Positions 12,677 through 39,281 are shown, counted from the stretch's first letter. The stretch: DNA of 64,000 bases from Candidatus Sericytochromatia bacterium (GCA_044356335.1 JBIKWL010000007.1:271-64270), one strand, 5' to 3'. The notes: a model not told the origin generated them from the letters alone. Made by a program: numbers and translations.

Positions 12677-13585
12677 ATGAGTAAAAATATGAATTTAATA
12701 TTATTAATCGGCTCAAGTCTCATTATTTCAGCGGGTTTGGGTTATGGTGTTTATCAACTCATGCCGTTTGGGGCTGATCGCCGCTCAGAAACGAGTTCAC
12801 ACGAATCTCTTAACAACGTTCTTGGATCTGTTCCCTCTCCAACCCCTACAGAGCCCAATATTATCACTGTGGGAGATAATGACAATCTAAATCAGCCAGT
12901 AGAATCAACACCATCGGCCACTGTTTTTAAGTCAGCGCTTGTTTCATCAATTAAAACCGCTGTTCCAGAAGAATCTAATTTTAAACAATTTCCGTTTAGT
13001 TGTGATCAATTTGAAAACCAAATAATTCAAGACCCCAAGTATCAACGTGATCTCGCGATCTGGAAACCCCAAATTACGTCATACAGTTCTCGCCATTATG
13101 GTGAACCCACCTGGAAACTTGATCCCAGTGTCATTGTGCTTCACTATACAGTGGGAACCTCTTTCCCTTGGAATTTGGTAAATACGCTAAATTTTGCTGG
13201 AGAAACCCCAGGTTTATCCGTTCACTATGTGGTGGATGGACCCAAAATTTGGCGACTATTGCCAGATAATGTCCGATCACGGGGTGCCTATGGCATTAAC
13301 CACCGGGCTATCAATATTGAAATGATTGCGCTCGAAGAAAAAGATCTTTTTCAAAATCGAAAACCAACTTTGGATAAATCAGCAGAATTGGTCGCGTGCC
13401 TGATGCAGTGGCATAAAATACCAATAAAAAAAATCTATTCACATGAAGACGTTAGCAAAATGAATCCCAAAATTGTTCCTGAAGTTTTTGATTTGGTCCA
13501 ATCTGGGGCCTATGGCAAATCGGATCCGGGTGAATTGAATATGGCGTATGTACTCAATAAACTGAAACTCTGGGGCCTCAATTAA
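12677..13585 (+). CDS. N-acetylmuramoyl-L-alanine amidase, Amidase_2 (AmpD/PGRP-like) domain, membrane-anchored
   Basis: N-terminal TM. 'VIVLHYTVGT...SVHYVVDG...AYGINHRAINIEM' is typical of Amidase_2. Confidence 0.6.
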   Translation: MSKNMNLILLIGSSLIISAGLGYGVYQLMPFGADRRSETSSHESLNNVLGSVPSPTPTEPNIITVGDNDNLNQPVESTPSATVFKSALVSSIKTAVPEESNFKQFPFSCDQFENQIIQDPKYQRDLAIWKPQITSYSSRHYGEPTWKLDPSVIVLHYTVGTSFPWNLVNTLNFAGETPGLSVHYVVDGPKIWRLLPDNVRSRGAYGINHRAINIEMIALEEKDLFQNRKPTLDKSAELVACLMQWHKIPIKKIYSHEDVSKMNPKIVPEVFDLVQSGAYGKSDPGELNMAYVLNKLKLWGLN

Positions 13586-14991: not shown

Positions 14992-14995
14992 AAGT

Positions 14996-19327: not shown

Positions 19328-20056
19328 TCAGGACATAAAGTCAAAAGCCAATTGCTTTACTTCAGCATTATTGGTCTTGGGAGTGCACGAAAAATCGTTT
19401 AATACGGCCAAATAGTCTTTCCGATTCTGAAGACATCCCAGCAAGCCCCGCCTTTTTAAAGCCAAAAACAGAGCGGCAGAGTGGGCTTGGCAATTCAGAG
19501 AGCGAGTGGGATTAAACTCAATATCTGTAAAGGCCTCAAATTCATCCAATTGGATCTTGTTTTGCAGCAAGGCTTGTAAATAGATCCAGTCATAAAAGGC
19601 TGTAGTCGGCTCTAACGGCCAGTCTTCGTCTTCAAGTTGAAATCGAATCAATGGACCCGAAGTTTGCAAACGCACATCTTTGCGTGCTTCGCGTGAATTG
19701 AATAGATACAAATCTTTGAAAGGGCCGCCATTTTGAAAAACTTTGCTGGCCTGAAAAATGACCTCAATGGGCCATTTCCCCTGACTGAGTTGCAAAGATA
19801 AGTGAAAGGCACTCAGTTGCATACCCAAGATTCGCTGAGACTTACTCGAGATTTCTAAGATAGGGTTGAGCTTTAATTGAGTCTGGGCAGCAGCATGGAA
19901 GGCGGCGACTGAACGCTGTTTTTGGGCAATCGAAAAGCCCGGAAACCAATTAAATTCGACCATGACGGTTTTGACCAATTGGTTGGGATCCGAAGAAGGA
20001 AGAAAGATCGGACGCTGAGCCATAATGTGCCTCTTTATGCTTGCCACTTTTGGCAA
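19328..20056 (-). CDS. Hypothetical protein; candidate cognate partner (antitoxin?) of the DarT-like gene, no macrodomain motifs seen
   Basis: Its start overlaps the 3' end of the upstream DarT-like ORF by 22 nt on the same strand. No GGG(V) or macro signatures and no recognisable family. Confidence 0.4.
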   Translation of the reverse strand: MPKVASIKRHIMAQRPIFLPSSDPNQLVKTVMVEFNWFPGFSIAQKQRSVAAFHAAAQTQLKLNPILEISSKSQRILGMQLSAFHLSLQLSQGKWPIEVIFQASKVFQNGGPFKDLYLFNSREARKDVRLQTSGPLIRFQLEDEDWPLEPTTAFYDWIYLQALLQNKIQLDEFEAFTDIEFNPTRSLNCQAHSAALFLALKRRGLLGCLQNRKDYLAVLNDFSCTPKTNNAEVKQLAFDFMS

Positions 20057-20601
20057 TGAATCAAAAATTCAGGGGGAACGCGACGCAAGACCAGAATTTC
20101 AGCTTGAAACCTTTTGAAGTCTTGTCTTGGGCCTTTTTTTAGATCTTGAAACAAGTCATAGCGAATTTCTTGTAAGCCCAATGCGCCTTTAAAGAAGCGG
20201 GTATGTCTATCCAAAGAGTTGTGAGTACTGACCAGAAATTCTTTTTGCAGGTTTAAAACTGCGGGATGAATTTCAATTTTCCAAAGATCAAGTTCGGGAT
20301 GGGCATTTTTGGCTGAATAAACCATGGGGTATTGATCATGAAATCCCAAATGCAAATATTTGTCATGGTTCATAGCTTTTTCTGCCTGTCGAGAGCTGGG
20401 GAGACTTATGTAAGCTGCAACCTTGAGCCGATTCTGTGCAAGTAGGCGGGGGCTTAAAATACCCAATTTGAAAATGCTGTCTAAATTTCGGCGATCCGTA
20501 ATATGCCAAAGAGATTTTACACCCTTAGCTTTTAAATAGGGAACAGGATCCTGTGCAGTCGTTGGGGATGCGTTGATTGGCGTTTCATTTATACCCAGCA
20601 T
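20035..20601 (-). CDS. DarT-like (DUF4433) ssDNA ADP-ribosyltransferase toxin candidate
   Basis: The N-terminal 'SLWHITDRRNLDSIFKLGILS' resembles the DarT/DUF4433 'YHITHxxNLxSIL..G.L.S' start. The C-terminal 'FQAEILVLRRVP' resembles the DarT 'AE(F/L)LV' segment carrying the catalytic Glu. Size 188 aa. Confidence 0.55.
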   Translation of the reverse strand: MLGINETPINASPTTAQDPVPYLKAKGVKSLWHITDRRNLDSIFKLGILSPRLLAQNRLKVAAYISLPSSRQAEKAMNHDKYLHLGFHDQYPMVYSAKNAHPELDLWKIEIHPAVLNLQKEFLVSTHNSLDRHTRFFKGALGLQEIRYDLFQDLKKGPRQDFKRFQAEILVLRRVPPEFLIHCQKWQA

Positions 20602-20747: not shown

Positions 20748-21239
20748 GTGTTAAAACTTTTCTTTGCTTTTTCGCTTTTGGCGCTTAGCCTACTTTCTGG
20801 CCCTCGTCTGGCCTTGGCGGATTTTACGCCCATGGATGGGAAAATCACCCGCGTTTTAAATGGCGATACAATTCAGTTTAAATTCAAAAAACACAGTTTT
20901 CGTTTGCAACTGTATGGCATTGATGCCCCCGAGGAAGGCCAACCCCAAGCTTTGGCTGCCAAAAAATACTTGGAAAATTTGGCCTTGCTCAAACCCGCCC
21001 ATGTCCAGGTTTTATCCAAAGACCTCTACAAACGCTATATCGCCAAAGTGACCCTTTCGTCTCAGATCGATTTGAGTCAAGAAATGGTCAAGGCGGGTTA
21101 TGCTTGGTGGTACCGCAAATATGCCCCCAATCAGACCACATTAAAAGAGTTAGAAGCCCTGGCCAAAAAGCAGAAATTGGGCATTTGGAAAGATGCAACC
21201 CCCACTCCTCCCTGGGAGTTCAGAGAACACACCCGCTAG
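20748..21239 (+). CDS. Secreted staphylococcal-nuclease (SNase/thermonuclease) homologue
   Basis: Signal peptide. 'VLNGDTIQF...LQLYGIDAPEEGQP...KRYIAKV...GYAWWYRKY' follows the SNase layout. Confidence 0.7.
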   Translation: MLKLFFAFSLLALSLLSGPRLALADFTPMDGKITRVLNGDTIQFKFKKHSFRLQLYGIDAPEEGQPQALAAKKYLENLALLKPAHVQVLSKDLYKRYIAKVTLSSQIDLSQEMVKAGYAWWYRKYAPNQTTLKELEALAKKQKLGIWKDATPTPPWEFREHTR

Positions 21240-21253
21240 CCCATTACTGGATT

Positions 21254-22321
21254 TTAGGGGCAAGTCGCTTGACAGGCTTCGTCGTGGCTCAGTTCACAGG
21301 CCTTGGCAAAATCTGCCTTGGCCTTGGAGCAATCACCCTGGGCTTTTTCAATCTGGGCGCGATGAAACCAGGCCCACCGAAAGTCTGGACGCAATTGAAT
21401 TGCCTGGTTGAGATCCTCTAGGGCTTGAGCTGTTTGGCCTTGCTTAAAAAAAGTCCATCCGCGGGTGCTGTAAGCGACGGCATAAGTGAGGTCTAAAGCG
21501 ATGGCTTGATTCGAATCGGAAAGGGCCTCTGGCCATTTGTTTTGGGCCTGATACACCAAGGCACGGTTGTTGTAAGCCGCCACATAGCGATTGTCGAGCT
21601 TGAGACAGCGCTCATAATAGGCCAATGCCAAGTCGTAATCCTTTGCTTGGTAGGCTTGATAGCCCACTTTGATCAACGCCGAGGGTTCCATCTTGAGCGC
21701 TTGGAGTGGAAGTCCCCGCAGATTATATTGCATACCAGCCCAAAGCAAGCCAATCCCAATCACCACAAATGCAAGACTCCAACCGGCCAATAAAAGGGGA
21801 TTGCGAGAGATTTTTTCCAACATTTTTAAGGGTTGGGTTTTGCGATGGGTGATTAACGGGGCGGTAATCGGGCGGGAGAGCGTGCCGGTTTGATTTGATT
21901 GGGGCAAAGGCTTAGAAAGCGTCTGTAAATACCATTTTAAGACACTGGGCAATAAGACCAAAGCATGTTGAACTTGCTCTTGGTTAATTTTTTCATCGGT
22001 TTCTTTGGGATGAGCACCATAGGTTCCCAAGCGGTTAAGATGCATCATTGTATCGTAGACACTGTGAGGCAAACCCTTGGATTGATTCAATTGCTGTAAT
22101 TGATTTTGAAGGGGTTGGGTTTTGGGAGCTTTTCCCAATTCTGCAAAATAAATAGCGTGAACCATTTTTTCGAGTAAATGACGTATGAATACGAGAACAA
22201 CGATGGGGTCTTCGTTGGCAAGGATCTTGGCTGCTGTTTCAGCCATGTCAGGCTCTTGCTCTGACAACGTATTGAGCCAAGGCTGAAGTTGTTTGCGCTC
22301 TGATTCCCAATTGACGTGCAT
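21254..22321 (-). CDS. TPR-repeat membrane protein with Cys-rich C-terminal tail (paralogue of 153..1523 tail)
   Basis: TM segment 'LLLAGWSLAFVVIGIGLLWA'. TPR repeats ('YNNRALVY', 'YSTRGWTF'). C-terminus '..KAKADFAKACELSHDEACQATCP'. Confidence 0.6.
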   Translation of the reverse strand: MHVNWESERKQLQPWLNTLSEQEPDMAETAAKILANEDPIVVLVFIRHLLEKMVHAIYFAELGKAPKTQPLQNQLQQLNQSKGLPHSVYDTMMHLNRLGTYGAHPKETDEKINQEQVQHALVLLPSVLKWYLQTLSKPLPQSNQTGTLSRPITAPLITHRKTQPLKMLEKISRNPLLLAGWSLAFVVIGIGLLWAGMQYNLRGLPLQALKMEPSALIKVGYQAYQAKDYDLALAYYERCLKLDNRYVAAYNNRALVYQAQNKWPEALSDSNQAIALDLTYAVAYSTRGWTFFKQGQTAQALEDLNQAIQLRPDFRWAWFHRAQIEKAQGDCSKAKADFAKACELSHDEACQATCP

Positions 22322-22462: not shown

Positions 22463-23047
22463 ATGAGCTGGGAAAAACTGGACCAATTTTTAGTCAAAGA
22501 ACATGTGGGCATGTTCAAGGCCGCCAATAATTTTGATATCTTCGACCTCAACGGCGGAGACAAGGTGATGGAGTGCCGCGAGCCCAATTTGGGCATGCTC
22601 ACCAAAATCTTCAGATTCACCGATTACAAACGCATGACCCCCTTTGAAATTATTATCACCGACACCCAAGGCAAACAGGTCGTGAAGATCAAACGCGGTA
22701 TTTCGATCTTCTTGTCGAAGGTCGAAGTCTTTAACGAAAAAGACCAGTACATTGGCGGGTTTGCCCAGAAGTTCTTTTCGATTGGCGGCAAATTCGATGT
22801 GCTGGATAAAGCCGGCAATCCGGTCTGCACCCTCAAAGGCAAATGGACCGGCTGGGATTTTAAATTTCTCCAGGGCGAAACTGAATATGCCCACGTGACC
22901 AAAAAATGGGCTGGCCTGGGCAAAGAGCTGTTTACCTCTGCCGACAATTATGTGCTGGAAATGTCCGACAAGGTCAAAGACAAACCCGATCTCAAGCGCC
23001 TGATCCTGGCTGCCGTGATGTGTATCGACATGGTCTTAAAAGAGTAA
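22463..23047 (+). CDS. LURP-one-related/DUF567 (tubby-like fold) family protein
   Basis: Pattern and length resemble LOR/DUF567 proteins. Weak call. Confidence 0.4.
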   Translation: MSWEKLDQFLVKEHVGMFKAANNFDIFDLNGGDKVMECREPNLGMLTKIFRFTDYKRMTPFEIIITDTQGKQVVKIKRGISIFLSKVEVFNEKDQYIGGFAQKFFSIGGKFDVLDKAGNPVCTLKGKWTGWDFKFLQGETEYAHVTKKWAGLGKELFTSADNYVLEMSDKVKDKPDLKRLILAAVMCIDMVLKE

Positions 23048-24894: not shown

Positions 24895-25815
24895 CTACTG
24901 TTTGATCTTGGTGGTGACCGTGGTCTCAACAGTCAGGTCGCCACCTTTGGTGGGCTGAGGCTGCGCCTGAATCTGAGCTGAACCCCCCGCGATATTGCGC
25001 AGCGTCTCCAGGATGATATTCGAGGCAGATTGGTAAGAGCCTCTCGCTGCTGAACTTGCCGCAGACAGGCCGTTTTGGGCCTGGTTGCGAATAAACACAT
25101 CACTGGCTTTGGAGTTGATACTATCGAGCTGACGGTAAGCGCCATGGTAGATCGATTCCCGGCTCAGATTGTGGATGCTGCCATTGCTCATGATCTGTCC
25201 GCCTTGGCTGCGCACAGCGGTGTGAATATTCTGAATCGCATCCGAGGCCAGCCGTTTCATATCCTGGTCGTTGTTATTGTGTTTGGCTTTGATATCGCTG
25301 AGGGCTTTGAGGTAAGAATTGAGCCGCTTTTCGGGGTCTTTGATCAGCTTTCCGCCGTCGAGGGTGGCGGTAATGATGCTGCGCAGATTAGAAGAATCTC
25401 CGGTCAATTCATTCAGCTTTTGCAGGTATTTTTCGGCCATGCCTGCCACGTCTCCGGCATTTTCTGAGCCAGTGACGGTATTGTCGTGATTGACACCGCC
25501 AACAAATCCAAAGTCCACCGCTTTGTGCAGGGCATTGATCGCCACATCTGTCTGTTGGAAAACTTTATTGTCAAAGCTTTGCGTGGGGGCAGAAAAGAGA
25601 TCTTGCATCACGGCTGCGCCACCGGCATCAAAGTTGCCTGCTTGCACCTGATCGGCCAAAAAGGCTTTGGCTGACTCACTGGCTTCGCCCCCTTTGGCGG
25701 TCATCTTTTCTTTGATATCTATGGCTTCAAATTTATCTACTTTGCCAGGTGAATAGGGATCGCTGAGTGCGCGCGATACCATATCTCTTGCTGCGTTTAA
25801 ACCAAAATTACCCAT
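24895..25815 (-). CDS. Hypothetical Gly/Ala/Ser/Asn-rich protein (no signal peptide)
   Basis: Start at MGNFGLNAARDM with a GGAGGA RBS 6 nt upstream. The ORF track N-extension runs through the AT-rich repeat and is unlikely to be real. Confidence 0.45.
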   Translation of the reverse strand: MGNFGLNAARDMVSRALSDPYSPGKVDKFEAIDIKEKMTAKGGEASESAKAFLADQVQAGNFDAGGAAVMQDLFSAPTQSFDNKVFQQTDVAINALHKAVDFGFVGGVNHDNTVTGSENAGDVAGMAEKYLQKLNELTGDSSNLRSIITATLDGGKLIKDPEKRLNSYLKALSDIKAKHNNNDQDMKRLASDAIQNIHTAVRSQGGQIMSNGSIHNLSRESIYHGAYRQLDSINSKASDVFIRNQAQNGLSAASSAARGSYQSASNIILETLRNIAGGSAQIQAQPQPTKGGDLTVETTVTTKIKQ

Positions 25816-25855
25816 GGGTGTCCTCCGGACAGATTTACTCTTATTAACTATCTTA

Positions 25856-25935
25856 AGTTTAAACTCGATTCTGAACCAAATTTTTGTGAAAAAATATTGA
25901 GAAAAAATTTTAAGAAAAAATTTCGAGAAAAATTT
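25856..25935. repeat. Four tandem ~13-bp A/T-rich direct repeats (GAGAAAAAATTTT-like) upstream of gene 24895..25815
   Basis: Read directly: tgtgaaaaaatat / tgagaaaaaattt / taagaaaaaattt / cgagaaaaattt. Confidence 0.5.
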
Positions 25936-25940
25936 AAAAA

Positions 25941-27107
25941 TTAGGCCTGGGCCCATTTTTTGCCCAAGTACGCCCCAATCTGAACCAAGGCGGATGTGCT
26001 GGCGGTGCTTGAGTTCTCTGTCTCATCTGCCCACTCCACAAGTGCGTACGACTCAATCACTCCCGCAGGCCGGGGAACGGTCAGTTTTTGCCCTGTCACC
26101 AAAACCACGGGGATGTGCAAATCTTTTGCCAGCTGGATTAAGCGCGCAGGCCATTTGCCAAAACCGGATTGTGCGTCGAATTGCCCCTCACCCGTGATCA
26201 GCAGATCGGCCTTGGGCAAAGCGCTTTCGAGCAGAGCGCTTTCGAGCAAAGCGCTTTCGAGCCCTGTGAGCTGCAGCATCTGTTCGGTACCTCTAAGCAA
26301 TTGTGCGCCCAACAGGGCTTTGAGCCCCAGTCCCAGGCCCCCAGCCGCCCCCGCACCGGGGGTCTTGATCAGGTCTGATGCTGATTCTTTGAGCTGCAGG
26401 TCTTCACAGAGCCTGTGTGCCCAATGTTGTAAACCCGCTTCAAGTTTGGGGAGATCTTCGGGCTGGGCCCCTTTTTGCGGGCTGTATATGGCGACTCCGC
26501 CATTGGGGCCCAAGAGGGGGTTCGAGACGTCACAGAAAGCCATCACAGGGGTTTGTGCTGCAATAAAGGGGGTGGACGGCGGCACAATTTGGGCCAGTCT
26601 GTGAATCTGGGCTGGGCAAGGGGGGATCTGTTTGCCTTGGGCGTCTAAAAGCAGATAGCCCAAGGCTTGAGCCAGGCCCATGCCGCCATCCACGGTGCCA
26701 CTGGAGCCCAAACCCAGCAGCCATTCTTTGGGCTGCAGCGCCTGTGCTGACCAAAACAATTCACCCAAACCCAAACTGTTGACGTGTAAGGGATGGCGCT
26801 GCGAACGCGGGATCAGATGCAGGCCCGTTGCCTGGCAGGTTTCAATTACAACGCGCATTGTCTGGGCTTGCCAACCAAATTGGGCCAGAGCCAATTCCCC
26901 GTGGGGGGCATGAATGGCGGTCTGCTGCAAGCTTAATTGCAACGGCCGCTGCAGCGCTTCCAAGAATCCTTGGCCGCCGTCACTGACAGGCCAAATTTCA
27001 CACTCAAGACTGGGATGGGTTTGGCCCATGCCTTCAGCTAGGGCTTCAGCCACTTCCAACGAGCTCAGGGTGCCTTTAAACTTATCCAGCGCCAGCAGGA
27101 TCTTCAC
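25941..27107 (-). CDS. Glycerate kinase
   Basis: 'MKILLALDKFKGTLSSLEVAEA' at the N-terminus and '..LITGEGQFDAQSGFGK' near the C-terminus are typical of the GarK/GlxK family. Confidence 0.75.
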   Translation of the reverse strand: MKILLALDKFKGTLSSLEVAEALAEGMGQTHPSLECEIWPVSDGGQGFLEALQRPLQLSLQQTAIHAPHGELALAQFGWQAQTMRVVIETCQATGLHLIPRSQRHPLHVNSLGLGELFWSAQALQPKEWLLGLGSSGTVDGGMGLAQALGYLLLDAQGKQIPPCPAQIHRLAQIVPPSTPFIAAQTPVMAFCDVSNPLLGPNGGVAIYSPQKGAQPEDLPKLEAGLQHWAHRLCEDLQLKESASDLIKTPGAGAAGGLGLGLKALLGAQLLRGTEQMLQLTGLESALLESALLESALPKADLLITGEGQFDAQSGFGKWPARLIQLAKDLHIPVVLVTGQKLTVPRPAGVIESYALVEWADETENSSTASTSALVQIGAYLGKKWAQA

Positions 27108-27128: not shown

Positions 27129-30100
27129 TTAGCGCACTTTCGAAGGCAGCAGGTAGTTCCAGACCACTTCGGAGTGGTGAGTCACTTCTAAGACCTGCCG
27201 ATTGCCGCTGTGAACGATCATTGTGTGGCCATTGTCGAGGCGGTAGGCAGCCGTGGGGTTGCTGATCTTTTTGTGGGATTTCTCCGAGTTTAGGCCGCCA
27301 AATTGCCAAAAGATTCCCCCAGCGGGATCGACTTCGAGCAGGCGGTGGTTGCGGGTGTCGATGATCAGCGTATTGCCGTTGATCAGGCGAATGGCGCGCT
27401 CGGGGTACATCAGCTGATGGGGGCCATTGCCGGGGTTTTTGAGCGTGCCATATTGCCAGACAATTTCACCCTCGCGGTTGACCTCGATCACGTAATGGTT
27501 GCTCCAATCGGTGATCAAGACCGTGTCGTCGCTGGTGACTTCGGCGTAATAGGGCGCGTTGAGCGGGTTGATACCGCTGTCCCAGCCGCCAAAACTCCAG
27601 ATGATCTGTTTGAGTTCGTTGACTTCCAGCACCCGGCCACTGTATTGGTCGGTGATCAGAATATGTCCCGCAGGGGTGGGCACAGCGCTGCGGGGATGGC
27701 CGAGCAGGCCGGGGCGGCTGCCCATCACACCGGCTTCGCCGTATTGCCAGAGAATTTCTTTGGTCGGGCGGTAAATCCGAATCACGCGGTGGCGGTCGGT
27801 GTCGGTTAAGAGCACTTCGCTGTCTTCGCGCTCGGAAACCTGCACATATTGCGGCCGCTCGATAAACTCAGGGCTGCGGGGGTGGCTTTCGCCAAAGCGC
27901 CACATGATCTGCTTTTGGCGGTTAATAATGTACACGCGGTTTTCCTGTTTGTCGATCAGCGGCAATTCCATGTCGAGCAAATTGGCCTTGGTGGTCACAT
28001 AGCTGTGGGCTGCCTGCCGCGCCATTTCGTTGATGCGTTCATTCGAGGGTTTGGTTGAAAGCTCAACAATTTTGCCACTTTCACTCCGCAGTTTTTCGTA
28101 GTCGGGGGATTTTTGCAGGGTGCCGTATTGGTAGAGGTAAAGCGGGCGCAGCAAGCGGGTCACTTCAATCACGTAGAGCGGGCTGAAGACCACAGTATTG
28201 CCGTTGCCCATGCGTACCAGGCGGTTGGGAATAAACGAGAAGGCGCCCCCTGAGGCTTTTTCAATGCCGGTATCGAAGATCCAGACAATTTCTTTTTCGG
28301 GATTGACCTCGATCACGCGGCGGTTTTCGCTGTCGGAGATCAGGGTATTGCCGTTGGGCAGACGGAAGGCCTGGGTCGGCGCATTGAGCTGGTTGGCGTG
28401 TGAGCCGTAGCCACTGCCGAGTTTATTGTCTGGATTGCCAAATTGCCAGATGATCTCTTCGTCTTGGTTGACCTCGATCACGCGGTGGTTGTCGGTGTCG
28501 GTGATCAGAAAATGCCCGCCTTTGAGCACCTGCATATCCGAGGGGCTGTACAAGCGGCCACGGGTAATGCCAACACTGCTGGTGATGCCGTATTGCCACA
28601 AAATCTTGTTCTGGGGGTTGATTTCGATAATGCGGTGGTTGCCCTGATCGACAATAATCGTGTTGCCATTGAGCTTGCGCATCGCTTTAAGCGGGCGGTG
28701 CAGGCGGATATCCGAAGATTTGTCGGCAGGTGGGAATTGCCAGCGCACCTGGCCAGATTTGGAGACCTCGTAGACGGTATCTGTGCCCGCATCGGCAAAG
28801 AGGGTATTGCCGCTGGGCAGGCGAATCGGGTTGCTGGGCTCGATCAGCTCCATATGGCCGATGCCATCTTTGCCCCCAATTTGCCAGGTGATCTGGCCTT
28901 TGTTGTTAAATTCAATCACCCGCTGCCGTTCGGTATCGTGGATCAAAAAATGGTCATTGGGCAGGTCATCGGATCGAAGCACCTGATCGTCGGCTTCGTA
29001 CTGAATGCTCTTTTGCGGCGCAGACACAGCCCCCGCCGGTGAAGCCGCTGTTTGATTGGTCTCTTTGACCCGGCTGGCGATTTCTTGCAGATTGTTCGGC
29101 GGTGCGCTGGGGGCGTTGGGGGCAATCGCCGATTTTTTGGCGGGCAAGAGGGGTGTCAACAGCTGGTGAAAGACCTCTTTGGTGATCACGGTTTCGAGTG
29201 AAAATTGGTTAAACAGATCCGCAATGCGGATGATCGTATAGTCAAAATTCATCAGCTCTTTGCGGGCCCGGTCCACATAGGGCAAGAGCGTGTCGAGGGC
29301 TTCGACTTCGCCACTGAGGTCTATGCCCCAGATTTTGCGGAATTCGTTCAAACAATAGCGCGAGAGCACCTCGTTGATCTTTTCGCTGGTCAGGAGCGAG
29401 AAGTCGATTTCAGCTTTGTCTTCAGATTCTGTGTTGGCGTCAGCACTTTCTTCGCCCTTTCCAGAACCTTCAGGCTCCGACTTGCTTTCCGGCTTGATTT
29501 CAGTTTTCTGCTCGGGTGTGGCAGCGGGTTCCACTTTTGCAGCGGCTTGGCCCACTTCTGGCCCCTCTGTTTTGGTTGCCACAGGCGGGGTTGCCTTCAT
29601 TTCAGCCGGCGGCTTGGGTTCCGGTGGGGGAGCCGGTGGCAGCCCCTGTTCGAGCAGGTTTTCCATCACCCCTTCGGGGGCGGTGCTGGCAAATTCTTCG
29701 CGTTGGGCCGGTGTCATGCGGCTGACAATCTTTTTCATGCGGCTGATAATCTGGGCGTAAAACTCGCGCATGAAGCGGTCAAATTCGTCTTTTTCAAAGG
29801 GGATCACGTAAAGGGGCAAATCCGGAAAGATCTTTTGGGTGATCATTTCAATTTCGGGCCGACCAGGATTGACCGCCGCCACCCTGAAAATGCCGTTGAG
29901 GTGGTTGATCGGCACAAATTCGTAACGCCGCAAGAGAGTCTCTTTAAATTGGATCAAGATACTCGGGTCGAGTTGGTGGTCGTTTAAAACCGGATAGTCT
30001 TCTTCGGGATTGCCGCGCTGCTGTTCAAACGCATCCAATTCGGCTTCGTCTTCGGCGTCGAGTTCAAAAACATGGCTAAAGTCCAGATCATCTGCGCTGT

Positions 30101-31394
30101 TTTCGTTGTAGTCGGTCTCTTCCAGTAAATGGGCAAAGCCTTGCTGGGATTTGCCCATGGTTGCTTGAATGGTCCACTCGGCCTCTTCTACGTCTTGAAA
30201 GGAAATAAAGTTCATGTCCAACAAAACGTCGAGAATGCGGATATCCGAGCGGAAATAGCCATCGGGTTTGGACGAGGCAAAGGCCAAGAAACTCGGTTTG
30301 GTATCTTCGGCAAAGAGGGCATAACGATCGATCAGTTTATTGCTCTCAAGGTCAATAATATTCAGCCAGGGCGTAAACATGGCGGGCACATCGACATAGG
30401 TCATAAAGACCATAAAATTATTCAAGGGGCTCACGGCCATGAGGTCACAGGGATCGTCGAGGCTGCTGAAGAGATTGCCTTTGAGCGGAACACTGGCTTT
30501 AAACAGCAAATTGGTGGTGTCGACCACCACAATTTCGACACTTTCATCGGGGCGGGTGCTCTGCAAATACAGCCATTGCCCATCGCTGGAGATTTGAATA
30601 TTGCCCAAAATGCCGTAGGGCAGAGGCATGCGTTTGATCTTAAGCGACTTGAGATGGACCATCAGCAGCGAGGGGGTGTGATTGTCGGTGATATACAGTT
30701 TTTGGCCGTCCAGGCTGGGGGCCAGATTGAGGGTCTTTTTGCTGCCTGCTGGGCGCACACTTAAGATGCCCGAGATTTTAAAGGTCTCGGTATCTATCAC
30801 AAAAATGGCCCCCCGGCCCCGGTCGGTGACAAAAACATGCTGGCCCGAGGGCGAGACCATCAGGTCCAGGGGCAGCGAGCGCTGGGGTGAGATGGGGAAA
30901 TAACCATAGTGCAATTGCTGGGTCAGGGCCAAATACGGGTGGTCGTCGAGTTCGCCAAAATACAGGTGGGTAAAGCGGTCGGAAACAGTGATGCCGCCGG
31001 GGTTGTTCTCGGCATCTTCCCAGGCGATTTCACCCAATTCGCGGGCGTTGCTGGCGTGAAAGAGGTAGACGCTGCCGCTGCCAGCGGGCATCCAATCGAC
31101 GCCAAAAAAGCGTGGCCGAAATTTGCGGCTGATCGGCAAATCCAGGCTTTCAATCACCTCTCCCGACCAGGGGTTGACCTTGCGCAAAGCGTAGCCTTTT
31201 TGGTCCACGACATAACTCACCGCCCGCTGTTCGCGCTGTTGCTCGACCTTGATTTGGCGCAGTCGGGCCACAGCCAGAGAGAGTTGCTCAGGCGTGATTT
31301 TGCCTTGGTCTAGCAGGTATTCCTGAATGAGTTGCTCCTGAAAATCTGGGTTGGAGGGGTTCAGGGTTTCCGGGGTCGCGGTGGAAGAGATCAT
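27129..31394 (-). CDS. Giant (1421 aa) cytoplasmic multi-propeller protein: GspE-N (T2SSE_N)-like segments + YVTN propeller + ~16 NHL repeats
   Basis: No signal peptide. The N-terminal 'LIQEYLLDQGKITPEQLSLAVARLRQ' is an MshEN/T2SSE_N-like helix. A second T2SSE_N-like segment is 'YEFVPINHLNGIFRVAAVNPGRPEIEMI..LYVIPFEKDEF'. A Pro/Glu/Lys-rich linker follows. Repeated 'NHR(V/I)IEVN...(I/V)WQ(F/Y)G' NHL-type blades are present. Confidence 0.7.
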   Translation of the reverse strand: MISSTATPETLNPSNPDFQEQLIQEYLLDQGKITPEQLSLAVARLRQIKVEQQREQRAVSYVVDQKGYALRKVNPWSGEVIESLDLPISRKFRPRFFGVDWMPAGSGSVYLFHASNARELGEIAWEDAENNPGGITVSDRFTHLYFGELDDHPYLALTQQLHYGYFPISPQRSLPLDLMVSPSGQHVFVTDRGRGAIFVIDTETFKISGILSVRPAGSKKTLNLAPSLDGQKLYITDNHTPSLLMVHLKSLKIKRMPLPYGILGNIQISSDGQWLYLQSTRPDESVEIVVVDTTNLLFKASVPLKGNLFSSLDDPCDLMAVSPLNNFMVFMTYVDVPAMFTPWLNIIDLESNKLIDRYALFAEDTKPSFLAFASSKPDGYFRSDIRILDVLLDMNFISFQDVEEAEWTIQATMGKSQQGFAHLLEETDYNENSADDLDFSHVFELDAEDEAELDAFEQQRGNPEEDYPVLNDHQLDPSILIQFKETLLRRYEFVPINHLNGIFRVAAVNPGRPEIEMITQKIFPDLPLYVIPFEKDEFDRFMREFYAQIISRMKKIVSRMTPAQREEFASTAPEGVMENLLEQGLPPAPPPEPKPPAEMKATPPVATKTEGPEVGQAAAKVEPAATPEQKTEIKPESKSEPEGSGKGEESADANTESEDKAEIDFSLLTSEKINEVLSRYCLNEFRKIWGIDLSGEVEALDTLLPYVDRARKELMNFDYTIIRIADLFNQFSLETVITKEVFHQLLTPLLPAKKSAIAPNAPSAPPNNLQEIASRVKETNQTAASPAGAVSAPQKSIQYEADDQVLRSDDLPNDHFLIHDTERQRVIEFNNKGQITWQIGGKDGIGHMELIEPSNPIRLPSGNTLFADAGTDTVYEVSKSGQVRWQFPPADKSSDIRLHRPLKAMRKLNGNTIIVDQGNHRIIEINPQNKILWQYGITSSVGITRGRLYSPSDMQVLKGGHFLITDTDNHRVIEVNQDEEIIWQFGNPDNKLGSGYGSHANQLNAPTQAFRLPNGNTLISDSENRRVIEVNPEKEIVWIFDTGIEKASGGAFSFIPNRLVRMGNGNTVVFSPLYVIEVTRLLRPLYLYQYGTLQKSPDYEKLRSESGKIVELSTKPSNERINEMARQAAHSYVTTKANLLDMELPLIDKQENRVYIINRQKQIMWRFGESHPRSPEFIERPQYVQVSEREDSEVLLTDTDRHRVIRIYRPTKEILWQYGEAGVMGSRPGLLGHPRSAVPTPAGHILITDQYSGRVLEVNELKQIIWSFGGWDSGINPLNAPYYAEVTSDDTVLITDWSNHYVIEVNREGEIVWQYGTLKNPGNGPHQLMYPERAIRLINGNTLIIDTRNHRLLEVDPAGGIFWQFGGLNSEKSHKKISNPTAAYRLDNGHTMIVHSGNRQVLEVTHHSEVVWNYLLPSKVR

Positions 31395-31627: not shown

Positions 31628-33271
31628 ATGTGGCCAGGAGTGTTCGACATGTCTTTATCCCTTTCCCCGCGAATCTTGATTCAGTCTGCGTTTGCAGTGA
31701 GTCTCTTGCTTTTGCCCGGTTGTGGCCATTGGGAGGAAGTAGACAAAGCGGTGTCTGCCGCCACCCGGCGCGGTTTGGGCGATTATAGCGGCACCTTGGA
31801 TACCGCCAATTTGGTGCCGGTTTCTTATGCCAACGAACCCGGATCTGCCGAAACCCTGGGCCGCACCTTTAAATTTGCAGGGCCACGTCTGGTTACTTTG
31901 AATACCTCATCGGCCTGCCGTGATTCGCTGCCGGGCAAACCTGTGGCCACCAGCGAAGGCACGATCAGCAAATTCAGCTATTCTTTTTTGCAGATGATGG
32001 ACCAAAATTCCCAGGGCCAAACCCAGCTTAAACTCGACTATTTGGGGTATGCGGGCAATATTAAGACAGATATTAAGCAGAAGTCTTTGTTGGCGGCCAA
32101 AGTCTCATTGGCCCAGATTTTGGCCTTTCCAGGCTCTCCCAATTGGTCGGAGTTTGAGAATTGCTGCAAATTGACGGGCACCTGTGGCGATTATGTCGTC
32201 TCGGAAATGTACCAAATGAGCCAAAGTGTCAAAGCCCTGGCTTTTAACGAGTCGAATTTGCAGAGCGCGATCAATGCCTCGGGCAACGATGCGCTCAAGG
32301 CCCTGACCAATATTTCTGGCACCGTGGATTATGTCCACAAATCCACCCAGTCCACCGATCTGGGGGTAGACAAAACCTTTTGGTCCCATTTTGGCTTTCG
32401 CCAATTGCCCCCGGTTGCTGAAGCCCCGCTCGAAGGGGTCTTCCTCTCGCTCGAACCGAATAAAGTCGATTGCAGCACAACGGGCAATAAAAGTATTGGG
32501 ATGCGGCTGAACCTCAACAATGCAGCGGGTTCGGAAGCTGAACGTATGCTGGGGTATAACCTGGCGATTCCCGCTGGCTGGGAAAATGTCAGCCTCAAAA
32601 ACGAGGCCTTGGCCGATCGGGTTTTGATCAAAAATGGCGAATTGAGCTGCCGCCCGAGCAAAGGCAAGACCTGCCCGCCATCGCTCGAGATCAACATCAC
32701 CCCCCCAGAATGTAATTCGGTGCAAGATCTGACCCGCTCCGATTGGAAAGCCAATTTGGCGCTGTATATTCCTGGTTCTGCCAGCACGACCGGCTACCGC
32801 GCCCACCAAGAAAGCACCTCGACGCTGGTGGTGCCCAGCAAGCTTAAAAATATTCCCGAAGCCAGTTTGAGCCAATCTCTGCTGCGCGTGGATTTGACTG
32901 CGGGCAGCGAAAAAAGTGTCAACACGTTTATGACCATCAATACCGGGGATTTAACTGCGCCTCAGTTTCGTGTGATTGCCCCTTCGGTCAATTTTGCCCA
33001 GGTGCTGGTCTATCCGCCCAACCAGAAAAAAGTCGAGATCGAAGTGGCTGTCTCACCAGCGATCTGTGCAGATTTTAACCTCAGCCCGGTTTTGCATGTG
33101 CCCATGCAGGTGATTGTTTGGGGCAAACGCCCAGGGGCAGTGGATACAACGCTCTTTGAAGTGCCCCCTGTGAATATCACGGTCAAGCCGCAATGCCCGC
33201 CCAAAGCCAAATTGAATCAAACACCCACGCAACCCGTGAATGGCGATCCGCCCCCTGCGGCGGTGAATTAA
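31628..33271 (+). CDS. Putative lipoprotein, function unknown
   Basis: Lipobox-like 'LLLPGC' after a hydrophobic N-terminus. No enzymatic motif recognised. Confidence 0.5.
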   Translation: MWPGVFDMSLSLSPRILIQSAFAVSLLLLPGCGHWEEVDKAVSAATRRGLGDYSGTLDTANLVPVSYANEPGSAETLGRTFKFAGPRLVTLNTSSACRDSLPGKPVATSEGTISKFSYSFLQMMDQNSQGQTQLKLDYLGYAGNIKTDIKQKSLLAAKVSLAQILAFPGSPNWSEFENCCKLTGTCGDYVVSEMYQMSQSVKALAFNESNLQSAINASGNDALKALTNISGTVDYVHKSTQSTDLGVDKTFWSHFGFRQLPPVAEAPLEGVFLSLEPNKVDCSTTGNKSIGMRLNLNNAAGSEAERMLGYNLAIPAGWENVSLKNEALADRVLIKNGELSCRPSKGKTCPPSLEINITPPECNSVQDLTRSDWKANLALYIPGSASTTGYRAHQESTSTLVVPSKLKNIPEASLSQSLLRVDLTAGSEKSVNTFMTINTGDLTAPQFRVIAPSVNFAQVLVYPPNQKKVEIEVAVSPAICADFNLSPVLHVPMQVIVWGKRPGAVDTTLFEVPPVNITVKPQCPPKAKLNQTPTQPVNGDPPPAAVN

Positions 33272-35569: not shown

Positions 35570-36601
35570 ATGACCCAATCCGGTTCTTCTTTCTCGATTT
35601 ATAACCGTCCCAGTTCACAAGCGATTTCTCCCATGCCCAGCGCTTCGCGCCCCCAAACCGCGCCCCCTCCACCCCCTCGGACCCAGATCCCCACCCCAAC
35701 CGGCAATACAGCCCAGGCCCATACCCTGAGTGTCACGTCCACCCCTTCTGCCACGGCAGCCCCCCAGACCCTGCTCTTTCCGCTGCCAGGCACCTCAGTG
35801 GTTGAAGCCGGGCCCGGTGCCAGTCAAGTGGCTTTAAATGCCGTAAAAAATCTGCCAGGTGTGGCCCAGGCCTGGGTGGGCACGATCGAGAGCAATCAAC
35901 ATTCGGGCAAAGACAAAGAGACGGCCCTGATTGTGCCCCAGGGGTTGGACTATTCCAAACCTGTCAAGGTTTTGTATTATTTTCACGGCTGGAATGGCGG
36001 TGTCTCAAGTGCTTTGGGCAAAACTGGCAATGGTCTTGGCTCAGAACTGATGGAATGGGCCCGCAAAAACAACGCAGTGCTCGCAGTGCCCCAGGGCCCA
36101 GCCAAAGACCTCAGTGGACGCAGTGCTTCGGCCTGGATGGCGGGCTCTGAGACCTTTCCCAAATTTAACCAAGATGTGATGGGCAGACTCAGTGGCATGT
36201 TGCCCGCCACAGCCCAGATTGGCAGTGTCGAATTGGCAGGGCACTCAGCAGGGGGGATTGCCGTCCAGACGGCTTTACAGGGTGTGGCAGCCGCCTCTCC
36301 TCCGGTTTTGGCAGGCGGGCGGTGGCAGAATGTGACAGTTGGGGCAGCCCATTTTCTTGATGCCACCTATTCCGATGATGGCGCCCCAAATGGCTCAAAT
36401 CGGGGAGAAGATGCCTTCCGTGCCCTGCAAAAGATCAATCCCATGGCCCCATTTAATCTGGCGTATATTCCCAATACGGGGACCGACAAAGGCTATAGCC
36501 AGAAACACAAGGCCTCGTATTTAAACCAGACAGCAACCCAGTTTCGGCCCATCAGCCAAGCCAATCACAGCAGCCTGCCCAAGTATTATTTTAGCCATTA
36601 G
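35570..36601 (+). CDS. Secreted alpha/beta-hydrolase-like protein with Pro-rich N-terminal region
   Basis: 'GHSAGG' is a GxSxG nucleophile elbow. 'YYFHGWNGG' is oxyanion-hole-like. The N-terminus is Pro/Thr/Ala-rich. Confidence 0.5.
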   Translation: MTQSGSSFSIYNRPSSQAISPMPSASRPQTAPPPPPRTQIPTPTGNTAQAHTLSVTSTPSATAAPQTLLFPLPGTSVVEAGPGASQVALNAVKNLPGVAQAWVGTIESNQHSGKDKETALIVPQGLDYSKPVKVLYYFHGWNGGVSSALGKTGNGLGSELMEWARKNNAVLAVPQGPAKDLSGRSASAWMAGSETFPKFNQDVMGRLSGMLPATAQIGSVELAGHSAGGIAVQTALQGVAAASPPVLAGGRWQNVTVGAAHFLDATYSDDGAPNGSNRGEDAFRALQKINPMAPFNLAYIPNTGTDKGYSQKHKASYLNQTATQFRPISQANHSSLPKYYFSH

Positions 36602-37808: not shown

Positions 37809-39281
37809 TTGCAAATGGGGACAAAATGGTTATTATCTGCCACGCTTGTGACGCTCACGGGCTGCAGTTCTGTTGAATTGGTCACGCCATTTAGGGCTCT
37901 GGCTGGCTTGAATGCCTCTGCCCAAGCGGGGTCTGCCGGTTCAACCCCTGGCAATTCGGCATTGGCCAGTTTAAAAATCCTGGGCCAGATTCAATCCGAA
38001 AACGCCTCTTTGGAAGGGTTACAATTGCAACTTGTCTTAACGCGTCCAGGCCAAGCAGCCCAAAAAATCCGTTTAAATCCACGCGATTTGTCCAAAGGGG
38101 AATGGGCGCAGTGGCTCAATTTAGCTCCGGGCCAGGTTCAAATAGAGGCTCTTTTGCTTAACGCAGAGGGTGTCACCTTGAGCCGAACTTTAGCTGAATT
38201 GCGTCTGGTCAACCAAAACCAAGCCTCGCTGGATTTGCGACTGGACTTTACAGGCCAAGGCCGTCTTGCTGCTGGAAATGCTGCTGGAAATGCCGCAGGA
38301 AATGCCGCAGGAAATGCCGCAGGAAATGCCGCAGGAAATGCCGCAGGAAATGCCGCAGGAAATGCCGCAGGAAATGCCGCAGGAAATGCCGCCGCATTTG
38401 CGCAACCCCAACTCAGTCTCGCGCCCACGGCTCCGGCAACCGCCCCTGATTTTCGCCTCTTGCCCCAAAGTGATCTCAACGCCAATTTGAATACCAACCC
38501 AATCACAGGGGGCAACCCTGCAGGCTCCCCCAGCAAAAATACCTCTTTGCCTGCCAATTCACCCCCTGCCAATGCCAACCCTGGCTCAACGCCGGGTGCG
38601 GCAAACCCAACCAATGCCAATGCGCTCAATCTGCGCCTGTTAGAAAGTGGCAGCGACCGCCTCAGCTTGATCTGGGATGCCCCGGCCCAAAGTGGCATCA
38701 CGGGTTATGATATCTACCGCAACGGTCAATTGATTCAGGCCAACCATCCCCAGGCCAATTTTCAAATGGGGGGACTCTTTGATGGCACAGATTATGCCGT
38801 TCAAATTGTACCCAAAACCGCAAATGGCCCTTTAACGGCTGCCCAACACAGTTTTCGCACCAGCAGTTCCTCCTCTGGCGGCGGAGGTGGTGGTGGCGGT
38901 GGTGGCGGTGGTGGTGGCGGCGGTGGCGGCGGAGCAGCCCCAGTCACCCCCACTGTCAACAATCCCCCTGCGATTCAATCGCTTGTCGCCAGTCGCACGA
39001 CTTTAACCGGACTCAAACAGCCGATTCAACTCACGGCCAATGCCACAGATGACTCGACCTTGGCGGCCTCTGCTTACCAATGGTCATGTCTCAACTGTGG
39101 TGATGCCAGTTTTAGCAGCACCCAGGGCCATCAGGTGGTGTGGACCGCACCCACCACCCCGGGTACCTATACCCTCCAAGTCAGTGTTTCTGACGGGGTC
39201 AATGCCGCTGTGAGCAGCAGTATCGACGTGGTCGTTCAACATCTTTTGGCCGATGTGATCGTGGTGGGGAATTACCAATGA
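37809..39281 (+). CDS. Lipoprotein with (AAGN)x10 repeat, poly-Gly tract (~21 G), Fn3-like domain
   Basis: 'LTGCSS' lipobox. A 12-nt tandem repeat encodes AAGN. 'LSLIWDAPAQSGITGYDIYRNG' is Fn3-like. A run of GGN codons is present. Confidence 0.55.
   Translation: MQMGTKWLLSATLVTLTGCSSVELVTPFRALAGLNASAQAGSAGSTPGNSALASLKILGQIQSENASLEGLQLQLVLTRPGQAAQKIRLNPRDLSKGEWAQWLNLAPGQVQIEALLLNAEGVTLSRTLAELRLVNQNQASLDLRLDFTGQGRLAAGNAAGNAAGNAAGNAAGNAAGNAAGNAAGNAAGNAAGNAAAFAQPQLSLAPTAPATAPDFRLLPQSDLNANLNTNPITGGNPAGSPSKNTSLPANSPPANANPGSTPGAANPTNANALNLRLLESGSDRLSLIWDAPAQSGITGYDIYRNGQLIQANHPQANFQMGGLFDGTDYAVQIVPKTANGPLTAAQHSFRTSSSSSGGGGGGGGGGGGGGGGGGGAAPVTPTVNNPPAIQSLVASRTTLTGLKQPIQLTANATDDSTLAASAYQWSCLNCGDASFSSTQGHQVVWTAPTTPGTYTLQVSVSDGVNAAVSSSIDVVVQHLLADVIVVGNYQ
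38269..38396. repeat. 12-bp tandem repeat (GCCGCAGGAAAT)x~10 encoding AAGN
   Basis: Direct read of the sequence. Confidence 0.8.
38877..38939. repeat. GGN codon run encoding ~21 consecutive glycines
   Basis: Direct read of the sequence. Confidence 0.8.

Follow-up and report, generated by a model that had tools for sequence, protein, structure and literature searches.

MshEN modules in secretion ATPases and beyond

The GspE, PilB and MshE ATPases are regulated and docked through their N-terminal MshEN/GSPII domain, and the c-di-GMP-blind N-domains of GspE and XpsE bind GspL. In MshE, PilB, PilF, GspE and XpsE two hairpin motifs of 24 residues each stand in order, separated by a spacer of five residues and followed by the MshEN_C subdomain. 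In c-di-GMP-binding MshEN receptors both motifs are expected to carry the signature R-L-G...L...L..Q (PMC5013675), and the GSPII-A domain of PilF has been described as a natural c-di-GMP non-binder (PMC5013675, PMC12002112). The module also occurs outside secretion ATPases, in a regulatory or docking capacity, as in NfrB, glycosyltransferase and other fusions (PMC5013675, PMC8669469). In the NfrB type, MshEN_N is intact, contiguous, c-di-GMP-binding and attached to an enzyme.

Here we describe a 1421-aa protein that shares the two 24-residue motifs in order, followed by MshEN_C, but differs from the secretion ATPases in that it has neither an ATPase domain nor the c-di-GMP signature residues. 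Moreover, the usual five-residue spacer is extended by 335 aa, comprising a YVTN propeller of ~316 aa, and ~55 acidic residues lie between motif II and MshEN_C. Unlike in NfrB, the domain is split, degenerate and carried on propellers.

The gene and its product

The window is a stretch of 64,000 nucleotides from Candidatus Sericytochromatia bacterium (GCA_044356335.1, JBIKWL010000007.1:271-64270). The proposed open reading frame at 27129..31394 proved to be real: it lies on the minus strand, as do all features given below, and its translation from an ATG start gives 1421 aa and a stop codon. The product is strongly acidic (143 K+R versus 193 D+E). A Kyte-Doolittle scan with a 19-residue window, in which the highest mean was 1.23, revealed no transmembrane segment or signal peptide, profile searches gave no match to T2SSE (PF00437) or to an AAA family, and a pattern scan for Walker A ([AG]xxxxGK[ST]) returned 0 matches. 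As judged from its sequence, the protein is a cytoplasmic, multidomain, non-enzymatic-looking and Sericytochromatia-specific protein.

The sequence-only reading, all of whose quoted peptides were found in the translated ORF, had anticipated the cytoplasmic location without signal peptide or transmembrane segment, the missing ATPase, and an anatomy of MshEN-like pieces, YVTN blades, two NHL propellers and a linker, which is backed by the domain, profile and structure searches reported below. It had also called the architecture unusual, as indeed it is: an MshEN domain interrupted by a propeller, followed by an Hsp70 subdomain IIB-like module and two NHL propellers. Within this overall anatomy, the number of MshEN segments and of NHL blades had to be revised, and the IIB-like module and the paralogues with a CheA P2 domain had been overlooked.

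A split MshEN domain

The N-terminal helical hairpin (aa 16-55, 31230..31349) consists of MshEN_N motif I (L22-L45, with its turn at G31) and the spacer R46-V50. Alone, it scored 16.0-17.6 bits over positions 4-25 of NF053729, the 53-position MshEN_N model with a curated cut-off of 38 bits. AF2 predicted its helices at aa 16-29 and 35-55 with a pLDDT of about 80, and the consensus NPxFxEQLIQE(Y/F)LLxxGxIxPEQL is unchanged in the alignment of orthologues. The two motifs are not contiguous: after motif I, whose last residue is L45, the YVTN propeller intervenes before motif II (R386-I409) begins. The second hairpin (aa 386-412, 30159..30239) was assigned by the splice test described below, and AF2 predicted helices here at aa 387-393 and 399-425. 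It is followed by an acidic, weakly conserved linker (aa 413-468, 29991..30158), delimited by alignment, composition and pLDDT, with a net charge of -16 over aa 412-468 and pLDDT values below 50 at aa 414-445 and from aa 463.

MshEN_C, the alpha/beta (GspE N1-like) subdomain, occupies aa 470-548 (29751..29987), where Pfam PF05157 scored 30.0 bits (E 5e-7; gathering cut-off 23.1). The same model was above its cut-off in six of seven distant family members (29.5-43.6 bits), P0031 falling below it at 21.2 bits. A family profile of MshEN_C searched against 1.84 billion proteins retrieved proteins of the same architecture together with the true MshEN proteins P0035 and P0037; searched alone against the PDB, it retrieved no GspE or PilB chain. 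The AF2 confidence of this region is only 30-50 (pLDDT). C-terminal to it lies a conserved helical extension (aa 549-582, 29649..29750), with AF2 helices at 535-558, 562-571 and 576-582. The second T2SSE_N-like segment of the sequence-only reading corresponds to MshEN_C; its similarity holds, but rather than an independent copy it is a piece of one split domain, of which a third piece, motif II, had been missed.

When the propeller was removed in silico by joining aa 14-49 to aa 385-412, the NF053729 score rose from 17.6 to 29.1 bits (E 6e-7), still under the cut-off of 38, and the match became contiguous over positions 4-49. The splice point was picked from the motif register, a choice addressed by five controls (motif II reversed or shuffled, either of two other helices from the same protein in its place, and the hairpins in swapped order), which scored 14.7-20 bits and covered positions 4-25 or 4-26 only. 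A splice with a 12-residue spacer gave 26.9 bits. The same splice in seven other family members reached 31-43.6 bits, with P0029 above the cut-off; for comparison, the bona fide MshEN protein P0037 scored 52.1 bits. Spliced together, hairpin 1, hairpin 2 and MshEN_C were collinear with residues 13-112 of the Thermus PilF GSPII-A domain, the best solved match (6f8l, E 3e-4; 9g1w, E 0.019). Read in this way, the N-terminal half of the protein is one complete MshEN/GSPII domain, interrupted by a YVTN propeller between its two motifs.

At positions 1/2/3/24, motif I reads L/I/Q...L and motif II R/I/L...I. In motif I, Arg1, Gly3 and Gln24 are replaced by L, Q and L, in agreement with the earlier claim of an MshEN_N-like N-terminus with its Arg and Gly substituted, and in motif II Gly3, Leu21 and Gln24 are replaced by L, E and I. 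Even the relaxed pattern [RKPN]hGxxhhxx[GAS]hhxxxxhxxxhxx[QNKRYWST] (PMC5013675) found no full match in either motif of the query and 19 orthologues. Since R-h-G...Q is lacking from both motifs in all of these sequences, canonical c-di-GMP binding by the split MshEN domain is unlikely. The idea of a degenerate c-di-GMP receptor is supported at the level of sequence, both 24-residue motifs being present.

Propellers, linkers and an orphan Hsp70-IIB-like module

The YVTN-type beta-propeller inserted between the two motifs (aa 58-373, 30276..31223) had been recognised from its blades, and the assignment is supported by archaeal S-layer protein 1l0q, which was the best sequence match in phmmer (aa 130-293, E 1e-10) and the first structural match in Foldseek (E 5.5e-16), where E. 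coli YncE and hydrazine synthase beta were also retrieved. The TIGR02276 YVTN repeat was matched at aa 182-204 with 23 bits (cut-off 27.85). The AF2 model, of low confidence at aa 92-174, contains 24 strands and therefore 6 or 7 blades. Although 1l0q and YncE are its nearest matches in sequence and fold, this propeller differs from them in being a predicted cytoplasmic insertion inside another domain.

Downstream of the MshEN domain, a Pro/Glu/Ala/Lys-rich, length-variable linker (aa 583-664, 29403..29648) is predicted to be disordered from alignment, composition and AF2 (pLDDT below 50 at aa 593-662). Its acidic, Pro/Glu/Lys-rich character had been noted before, and measured over aa 580-664 it amounts to 19% E, 18% P, 14% A and 11% K, with a net charge of -10. 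It leads into a helix-helix-beta hairpin-helix module (aa ~667-752, 29139..29396) which resembles an orphan subdomain IIB of the Hsp70 nucleotide-binding domain. A family profile of this module matched SSB1, Hsp70 and DnaK in the PDB at residues ~227-316 (E 4e-11 to 2e-8), including the "(E/D)RA(K/R)(R/K)xL" helix and with the same topology. In the AF2 model (pLDDT 80-89) helices at 670-689 and 697-714 precede strands at 719-728 and 731-738 and a helix at 739-749. The Pfam HSP70 match covers only profile positions 224-309 of 599, and the PDB profile matches were likewise restricted to the IIB residues: the complete Hsp70/DnaK architecture is absent, and unlike those chaperones the protein has no substrate-binding domain, no ATP-binding motifs and none of the subdomains IA, IB and IIA. 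The module sits between low-complexity linkers, the second being a variable Ala/Pro/Ser-rich stretch (aa 753-806, 28977..29138) defined by alignment and composition.

The C-terminal half carries two NHL propellers, one at aa 807-1092 (28119..28976; AF2, Pfam NHL/PQQ_2/Arylsulfotran_2 and Foldseek) and one at aa 1143-1421 (27132..27968; phmmer, AF2 and Foldseek), joined by a partly helical linker (aa 1093-1142, 27969..28118; AF2 helices at aa 1099-1106 and 1118-1129). Pfam NHL scored 33.2 bits (GA 20), and phmmer matched the second propeller to the NHL domain of TRIM2 (E 3e-15). The fold had thus been identified correctly, but the earlier estimate of about eight blades in each is not compatible with the AF2 model (mean pLDDT 82), in which both are six-bladed with 23 strands each. 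The blade motif "NHR(V/I)IE(V/I)" is strictly conserved in the alignment. The six-bladed fold is shared with TRIM2, TRIM3, TRIM71 (Lin41), Brat and Thin at 18-25% identity and a target-normalised TM of 0.72-0.80, with an rmsd of about 3 Å for most of the TRIM2, TRIM71 and Thin chains compared in Foldseek. In contrast to these TRIM-NHL proteins, however, the present one is bacterial, has its NHL propellers in tandem and lacks RING, B-box and coiled-coil regions, and RNA binding is not indicated.

Proposed role and alternatives

We infer, as somewhat the likelier reading, that the protein acts as a flexible docking scaffold built on a degenerate split MshEN domain. Both hairpins would come together below the inserted propeller, at its base, in the customary bundle of four helices, an idea which fits the YVTN chain ends lying close together; in the 24-strand model one blade could be made up of the first three strands and the last (aa 367-373). 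The MshEN module, degenerate as it is, may then serve for protein-protein docking, for which the c-di-GMP-blind, GspL-binding N-domains of GspE and XpsE and the GSPII-A domain of PilF would be precedents. Each of the three propellers, like the IIB-like module, may be a partner- or ligand-binding platform on a flexible tether, with the long disordered linkers tethering the IIB-like module and the tandem NHL pair.

The conservation of motif I, which is invariant among orthologues of only ~65% overall identity, goes far beyond the needs of a purely structural helix, and for this reason a small-molecule ligand is possible. The bundle could then be a functional second-messenger receptor with a non-canonical way of binding c-di-GMP or a different (di)nucleotide, and the propeller would couple ligand to partner binding. 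The two-motif layout is complete and correctly ordered, and in other proteins an MshEN_N bundle on its own is sufficient to bind c-di-GMP (PMC5013675). Nevertheless, we regard this as unlikely given the replaced residues in both motifs, the failure of any orthologue to match the relaxed motif and the sub-threshold NF053729 score after splicing; similar substitutions in XpsE (G11V, G40L, Q61V and others) abolish c-di-GMP binding (PMC5013675).

The propellers themselves invite two further explanations. An NHL/ASST-like catalytic function (arylsulfotransferase-, lactonase- or lyase-type), with the MshEN part only regulating or localising the enzyme, might be read from the Pfam matches to Arylsulfotran_2 (38.8 bits, GA 27) and PQQ_2 (42.8 bits), from the Arylsulfotrans and Lactonase matches of relatives and from the strictly conserved blade motif. 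That motif, however, recurs in every blade, as a structural repeat would; the TRIM-type NHL domains that match best in sequence and structure have a binding and not a catalytic role; and the best ASST stretch covers ~32 of 301 profile positions (267-298), which corresponds to one blade repeat and not to the catalytic core, so that coverage of an ASST catalytic propeller was not found. Catalysis therefore appears improbable. Slightly more improbable still is a role in nucleic-acid binding, with RNA or ssDNA bound by the YncE-like propeller and by the NHL propellers in the manner of Brat and Lin41. The nearest folds do include the RNA-binding NHL domains of TRIM71 and Brat and the ssDNA-binding YncE, and one database source labels orthologues "DNA-binding beta-propeller fold protein YncE", but the likeness is at fold level only, the database name was transferred automatically, and the strongly acidic protein has propellers that are net negative or neutral (net charges -7, -2 and -2).

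Family distribution and paralogues

Sericytochromatia are non-photosynthetic relatives of cyanobacteria. A search covering one genome for each of 185,579 GTDB species found full-length relatives only in MAGs of Sericytochromatia, Blackallbacteria or unclassified Cyanobacteriota. The identity of 21 full-length orthologues to the query ranges from 57 to 96%. Docking onto a type II secretion or type IV pilus machine, as proposed in the sequence-only reading, would be one possible use of the scaffold; no linked gene for a pilus, for secretion or for chemotaxis was found, and no conserved gene neighbourhood was apparent among relatives, even at 65% identity.

The three genomes closest to that of the window each encode at least three paralogues. 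The hairpin-propeller-hairpin-IIB-NHL-NHL chassis is retained, without MshEN_C, by paralogues from the same genomes, and some of them carry on it a C-terminal CheA P2 domain (PF07194, 43-54 bits), the CheY-docking domain of CheA, which is absent from the query; the kinase domains of CheA are missing from these P2-bearing paralogues. The alignment places the IIB-like module in all P2-type paralogues tested and in L024. Of four P2-type sequences tested, three gave a weak split-hairpin signal (13-23 bits), as did L024, and the fourth, P0022, gave none. Together, these domain combinations suggest that the paralogues may form an adaptor family, in which one propeller chassis is plugged into different motility or signalling machines.

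A cytoplasmic protein without an ATPase domain

The 1421-aa ORF proposed from the sequence was recovered at window positions 27129..31394, on the minus strand and with an ATG start. It has 21 full-length orthologues (57-96% identity), of which every one with a named source derives from MAGs of Sericytochromatia, Blackallbacteria or ‘Obscuribacterales’, and since the alignment of the family shows a mean column identity of 70%, the ORF represents a real gene under selection. A megablast search of plasmids with this gene gave no match. With a hydrophilic N-terminus and Kyte-Doolittle means that peak at 1.23 for 19-residue stretches, the protein has neither a transmembrane segment nor a signal peptide, as the sequence-only reading had stated. 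The same reading saw no ATPase, which agrees with the missing Walker A motif and the lack of any T2SSE, AAA or other ATPase family match; an ATPase was accordingly discarded as a candidate. A secreted or surface propeller was also rejected, given the absence of export signals and partner domains that are all of cytoplasmic types. The protein is thus a cytoplasmic non-ATPase.

An MshEN domain split by a propeller

In Pfam, the MshEN domain (GSPII; PF05157) was matched at aa 470-548 (numbering counts M1) with 30.0 bits vs. a gathering score of 23.1, and the part concerned is MshEN_C, the alpha/beta subdomain as defined by Wang et al. (PMC5013675). In NCBIfam, the 53-position ‘c-di-GMP_motif’ model NF053729, which describes the two 24-residue motifs of MshEN_N, gave a sub-threshold match at aa 25-45. 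The motif I-like segment is an N-terminal hairpin (L22-L45, turn at G31). A second hairpin, R386-I409 (‘RILDVLLDMNFISFQDVEEAEWTI’), immediately follows the YVTN propeller, and its type is kept even in the most divergent family members.

When the propeller was deleted in silico by fusing aa 14-49 to aa 385-412, leaving a spacer of 5 residues, the NF053729 score, which had been 17.6 bits over positions 4-25, rose to 29.1 bits (E 6e-7), and the spliced hairpins covered positions 4-49 of 53 in a single ungapped stretch. Controls in which motif II was reversed, shuffled or swapped for two other helices of the protein, or in which the order of the hairpins was exchanged, scored 14.7-20 bits over positions 4-25 or 4-26 only. 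With a 12-residue spacer the splice still reached 26.9 bits. The equivalent splice in seven other members gave 31-43.6 bits, one of them above the curated cut-off of 38 bits, compared to 52.1 bits for a bona fide MshEN protein. Searched by itself against NCBIfam, motif II found no match; it was detected only beside motif I. Joined to MshEN_C, the spliced hairpins aligned as one collinear unit with Thermus PilF GSPII-A, residues 13-112 (6f8l, E 3e-4; 9g1w, E 0.019), the closest solved relative.

When 1.84 billion representatives were searched with a profile of the MshEN_C region, no more than 14 proteins reached E <= 1e-3. Most were proteins of 1137-1408 aa sharing the architecture described here, and among the 14 were two genuine MshEN proteins, P0035, which has two MshEN copies and scored 107 bits, and P0037, at 71.6 bits. 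Against the PDB, an MshEN_C family profile matched no GspE or PilB and gave only weak, spurious matches to TRF1.

The splice scores and the collinear PilF alignment therefore give the order motif I, YVTN propeller, motif II, acidic linker (net charge -16) and MshEN_C. Of the two T2SSE_N-like segments claimed earlier, the likeness to MshEN stands, but they are not separate, as the splice test makes both of them pieces of one split domain. The anatomy of the protein as a whole is very probably correct as parsed. At the base of the propeller that separates them, the two hairpins would pack into the bundle typical of MshEN_N.

Judged from its residues, the c-di-GMP motif is degenerate. Motif I has L/I/Q/L/V/L at positions 1/2/3/17/21/24, and motif II has R/I/L/V/E/I; the replacement of the signature Arg and Gly noticed at the N-terminus is evident at positions 1 and 3 of motif I (L and Q). 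Comparable substitutions have been reported to abolish c-di-GMP binding by XpsE (PMC5013675), and PilF GSPII-A is a natural non-binder (PMC12002112). Because of the replaced key positions and these two precedents, canonical c-di-GMP binding appears unlikely.

Propellers and an Hsp70 IIB-like module

Analyses with phmmer, AF2 and Foldseek agree with the calls of YVTN and NHL propellers. The C-terminal half was matched in Pfam by NHL, PQQ_2 and Arylsulfotran_2, whereas NCBIfam gave YVTN- and YncE-type matches at aa 178-253. In phmmer searches of the PDB, aa 130-293 matched the YVTN S-layer propeller 1l0q (E 1e-10) and aa 1146-1399 the NHL domain of TRIM2/3/71 (E 3e-15). The AF2 model of aa 781-1421 (mean pLDDT 82) contains two propellers of 23 strands and six blades each, connected by a partly helical linker, and its best Foldseek matches were the NHL domains of TRIM2, TRIM71, Thin and Brat (target-normalised TM 0.69-0.80, rmsd mostly about 3 A). 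The number of NHL blades is therefore six plus six, and not about eight per propeller as first counted.

The model of aa 1-780, for which 20 closely related sequences were taken in, is weaker (mean pLDDT 60), and because its MshEN_C region failed to fold, all its Foldseek matches are propellers. It shows a propeller of 24 strands at aa 58-373, with 1l0q, hydrazine synthase beta and YncE as top matches. On this model the YVTN propeller would have six or seven blades; by the 24-strand count, the last strand (aa 367-373) could finish a blade with the first three, so that the chain ends would lie near each other.

A further piece had been overlooked. Pfam gave a weak HSP70 match at aa 671-753, and a profile of aa 655-762 from 16 family members matched Hsp70, SSB1 and DnaK chains (E 4e-11 to 2e-8), always at Hsp70 residues ~227-316, i.e., subdomain IIB of the nucleotide-binding domain. 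AF2 models the segment as helix-helix-beta hairpin-helix (pLDDT 80-89), and low-complexity linkers lie on both sides. The confinement to IIB, the topology and the flanking linkers thus identify an orphan IIB-like module; a full Hsp70 was rejected, as subdomain IIB alone is present. The module is missing in P0038 and P0039, the shortest MshEN_C-bearing relatives.

Distribution and paralogues

One genome from each of 185,579 GTDB species was scanned, yielding 44 loci. All matches spanning most of the protein were in MAGs of Sericytochromatia, Blackallbacteria or unclassified Cyanobacteriota. Two of the loci (L006 and L012) are 96% identical to the protein, and the organism of the window is thereby assigned to this group. 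Beyond the class, matches were restricted to the NHL region (Acidobacteriota, Planctomycetota, Dehalococcoidia and Ignavibacteria; E 2e-8 to 6e-4). At least three full-length paralogues occur in each of the three genomes nearest to that of the window, e.g., L006 (96%), L024 (31%) and L033 (26%) in MAG_89. The paralogues share a chassis of hairpin, YVTN, hairpin, IIB-like module, NHL and NHL, in which the spliced-hairpin signal is weak (13-23 bits in four of five tested; none in P0022) and MshEN_C is absent. Those of the L033, L030 and P0022 type end in a CheA P2 response-regulator-binding domain (43-54 bits); they comprise a tandem pair in one MAG (L030, 2866-7023 and 8224-12228, both +) and a C-terminal P2 protein at L033 (2860-7008, +). 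The CheA kinase parts are absent at both loci. The family is thus lineage-restricted, with modules swapped among its paralogues.

The occurrence of orphan P2 domains on propeller proteins seems unusual in its own right. A 90-aa database protein, P0036, opens with the acidic-linker sequence of the present protein and diverges afterwards, and is probably a frameshifted or misassembled orthologue fragment rather than a separate gene.

Gene neighbourhood and other features of the window

The gene is neighboured by a glycerate kinase, two ORFs without family match and an amino-acid permease, and further by a divergent 547-aa ORF (31628-33271, +), an APH-family kinase and MltA. ORFs of 353 aa (24895-25956, -) and 343 aa (35570-36601, +) flank it; like the 547-aa ORF, they have no Pfam match at E <= 1e-3. 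This neighbourhood is only partly common with that of an 80%-identical orthologue, the glycerate kinase is shared with close relatives only, and the neighbours are wholly different in four other genomes (more distant orthologues and a P2-type paralogue). The gene thus appears to stand alone, and its context is therefore uninformative on function and allows no operon inference.

Elsewhere in the window, a DarT ssDNA ADP-ribosyltransferase (PF14487; 20035-20601, -) overlaps a DarT1-associated NADAR antitoxin (PF22397, E 1e-80; 19328-20056, -), which looks like a DarT1/NADAR toxin-antitoxin pair (19328-20601, -) and adjoins a staphylococcal-nuclease homologue (20748-21239, +). An FHA-domain protein, a PP2C phosphatase and an FHA-fused ABC-2 transporter are clustered at 13585-18609 (+), in what looks like an export module under Ser/Thr-phosphorylation control. 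A 194-aa protein with a match to the eukaryote-type Scramblase family (PF03803, E 3e-19; 22463-23047, +) adjoins a DUF4145 and TPR protein (21254-22321, -), and a pair of large neighbouring proteins (37809-41947, +), which carry PKD/fn3 and TIG/sortilin-like BNR domains, is probably secreted or exposed at the surface.

Possible functions

GspE and XpsE N-domains bind GspL in the type II secretion system, and the degenerate MshEN may by analogy act as a protein-docking module, with the propellers and the IIB-like module as binding platforms held by flexible tethers. Such a docking scaffold is proposed tentatively, at somewhat worse than even chances. Since some chassis paralogues bear a CheY-docking P2 in place of MshEN_C, a function as an adaptor for motility or signalling is suggested, although this swap, its main argument, is circumstantial.

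Motif I is near-invariant in the family alignment, which leaves room for a different ligand or partner, and a non-canonical nucleotide receptor was considered. In a related and rather improbable scenario, the propeller-in-MshEN arrangement would be a novel type of allosteric sensor, in which a ligand or partner at the YVTN propeller opens or closes the four-helix bundle, or in which the bundle conversely binds a nucleotide other than c-di-GMP and acts on the propeller; together with it goes, at the same low likelihood, a previously unrecognised Sericytochromatia-specific adaptor system of MshEN- and CheA-P2-type paralogues, tying CheY-like regulators to a pilus or secretion platform via the common propeller chassis and an Hsp70-IIB decoy module. 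A catalytic ASST- or lactonase-like propeller was weighed as well, but the ASST match spans one blade repeat only. Nucleic-acid binding is opposed by the acidic composition (K+R 143 vs. D+E 193) and the negative net charge of every propeller.

Significance

Few modules for c-di-GMP reception and docking are as widespread as MshEN/GSPII, and we know of no described case in which an entire domain is inserted within its 53-residue unit of two motifs. Literature searches on MshEN with beta-propellers and on Sericytochromatia with pili found nothing relevant; in the library searched, a single paper names both MshEN and beta-propeller, and it describes no propeller-interrupted MshEN, nor was this domain combination described elsewhere in it. 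All parts of the protein are known domain types, but their combination is new: a whole propeller within the MshEN_N spacer, an orphan Hsp70-IIB module, by which a chaperone fragment is put to uncommon use, and a class-specific paralogous family alternating MshEN_C and P2 modules. If the bundle still forms, the protein would be a natural test of the tolerance of the MshEN fold and a possible template for propeller-coupled switches.

Sericytochromatia are an uncultured sister lineage of the oxygenic cyanobacteria, and the exchange of MshEN_C and P2 on one chassis points to a lineage-specific wiring of motility or signalling. Because the family is expanded, confined to this lineage and swaps MshEN_C for P2, the protein could be used to mark the lineage and as an entry point to the cell biology of Sericytochromatia.
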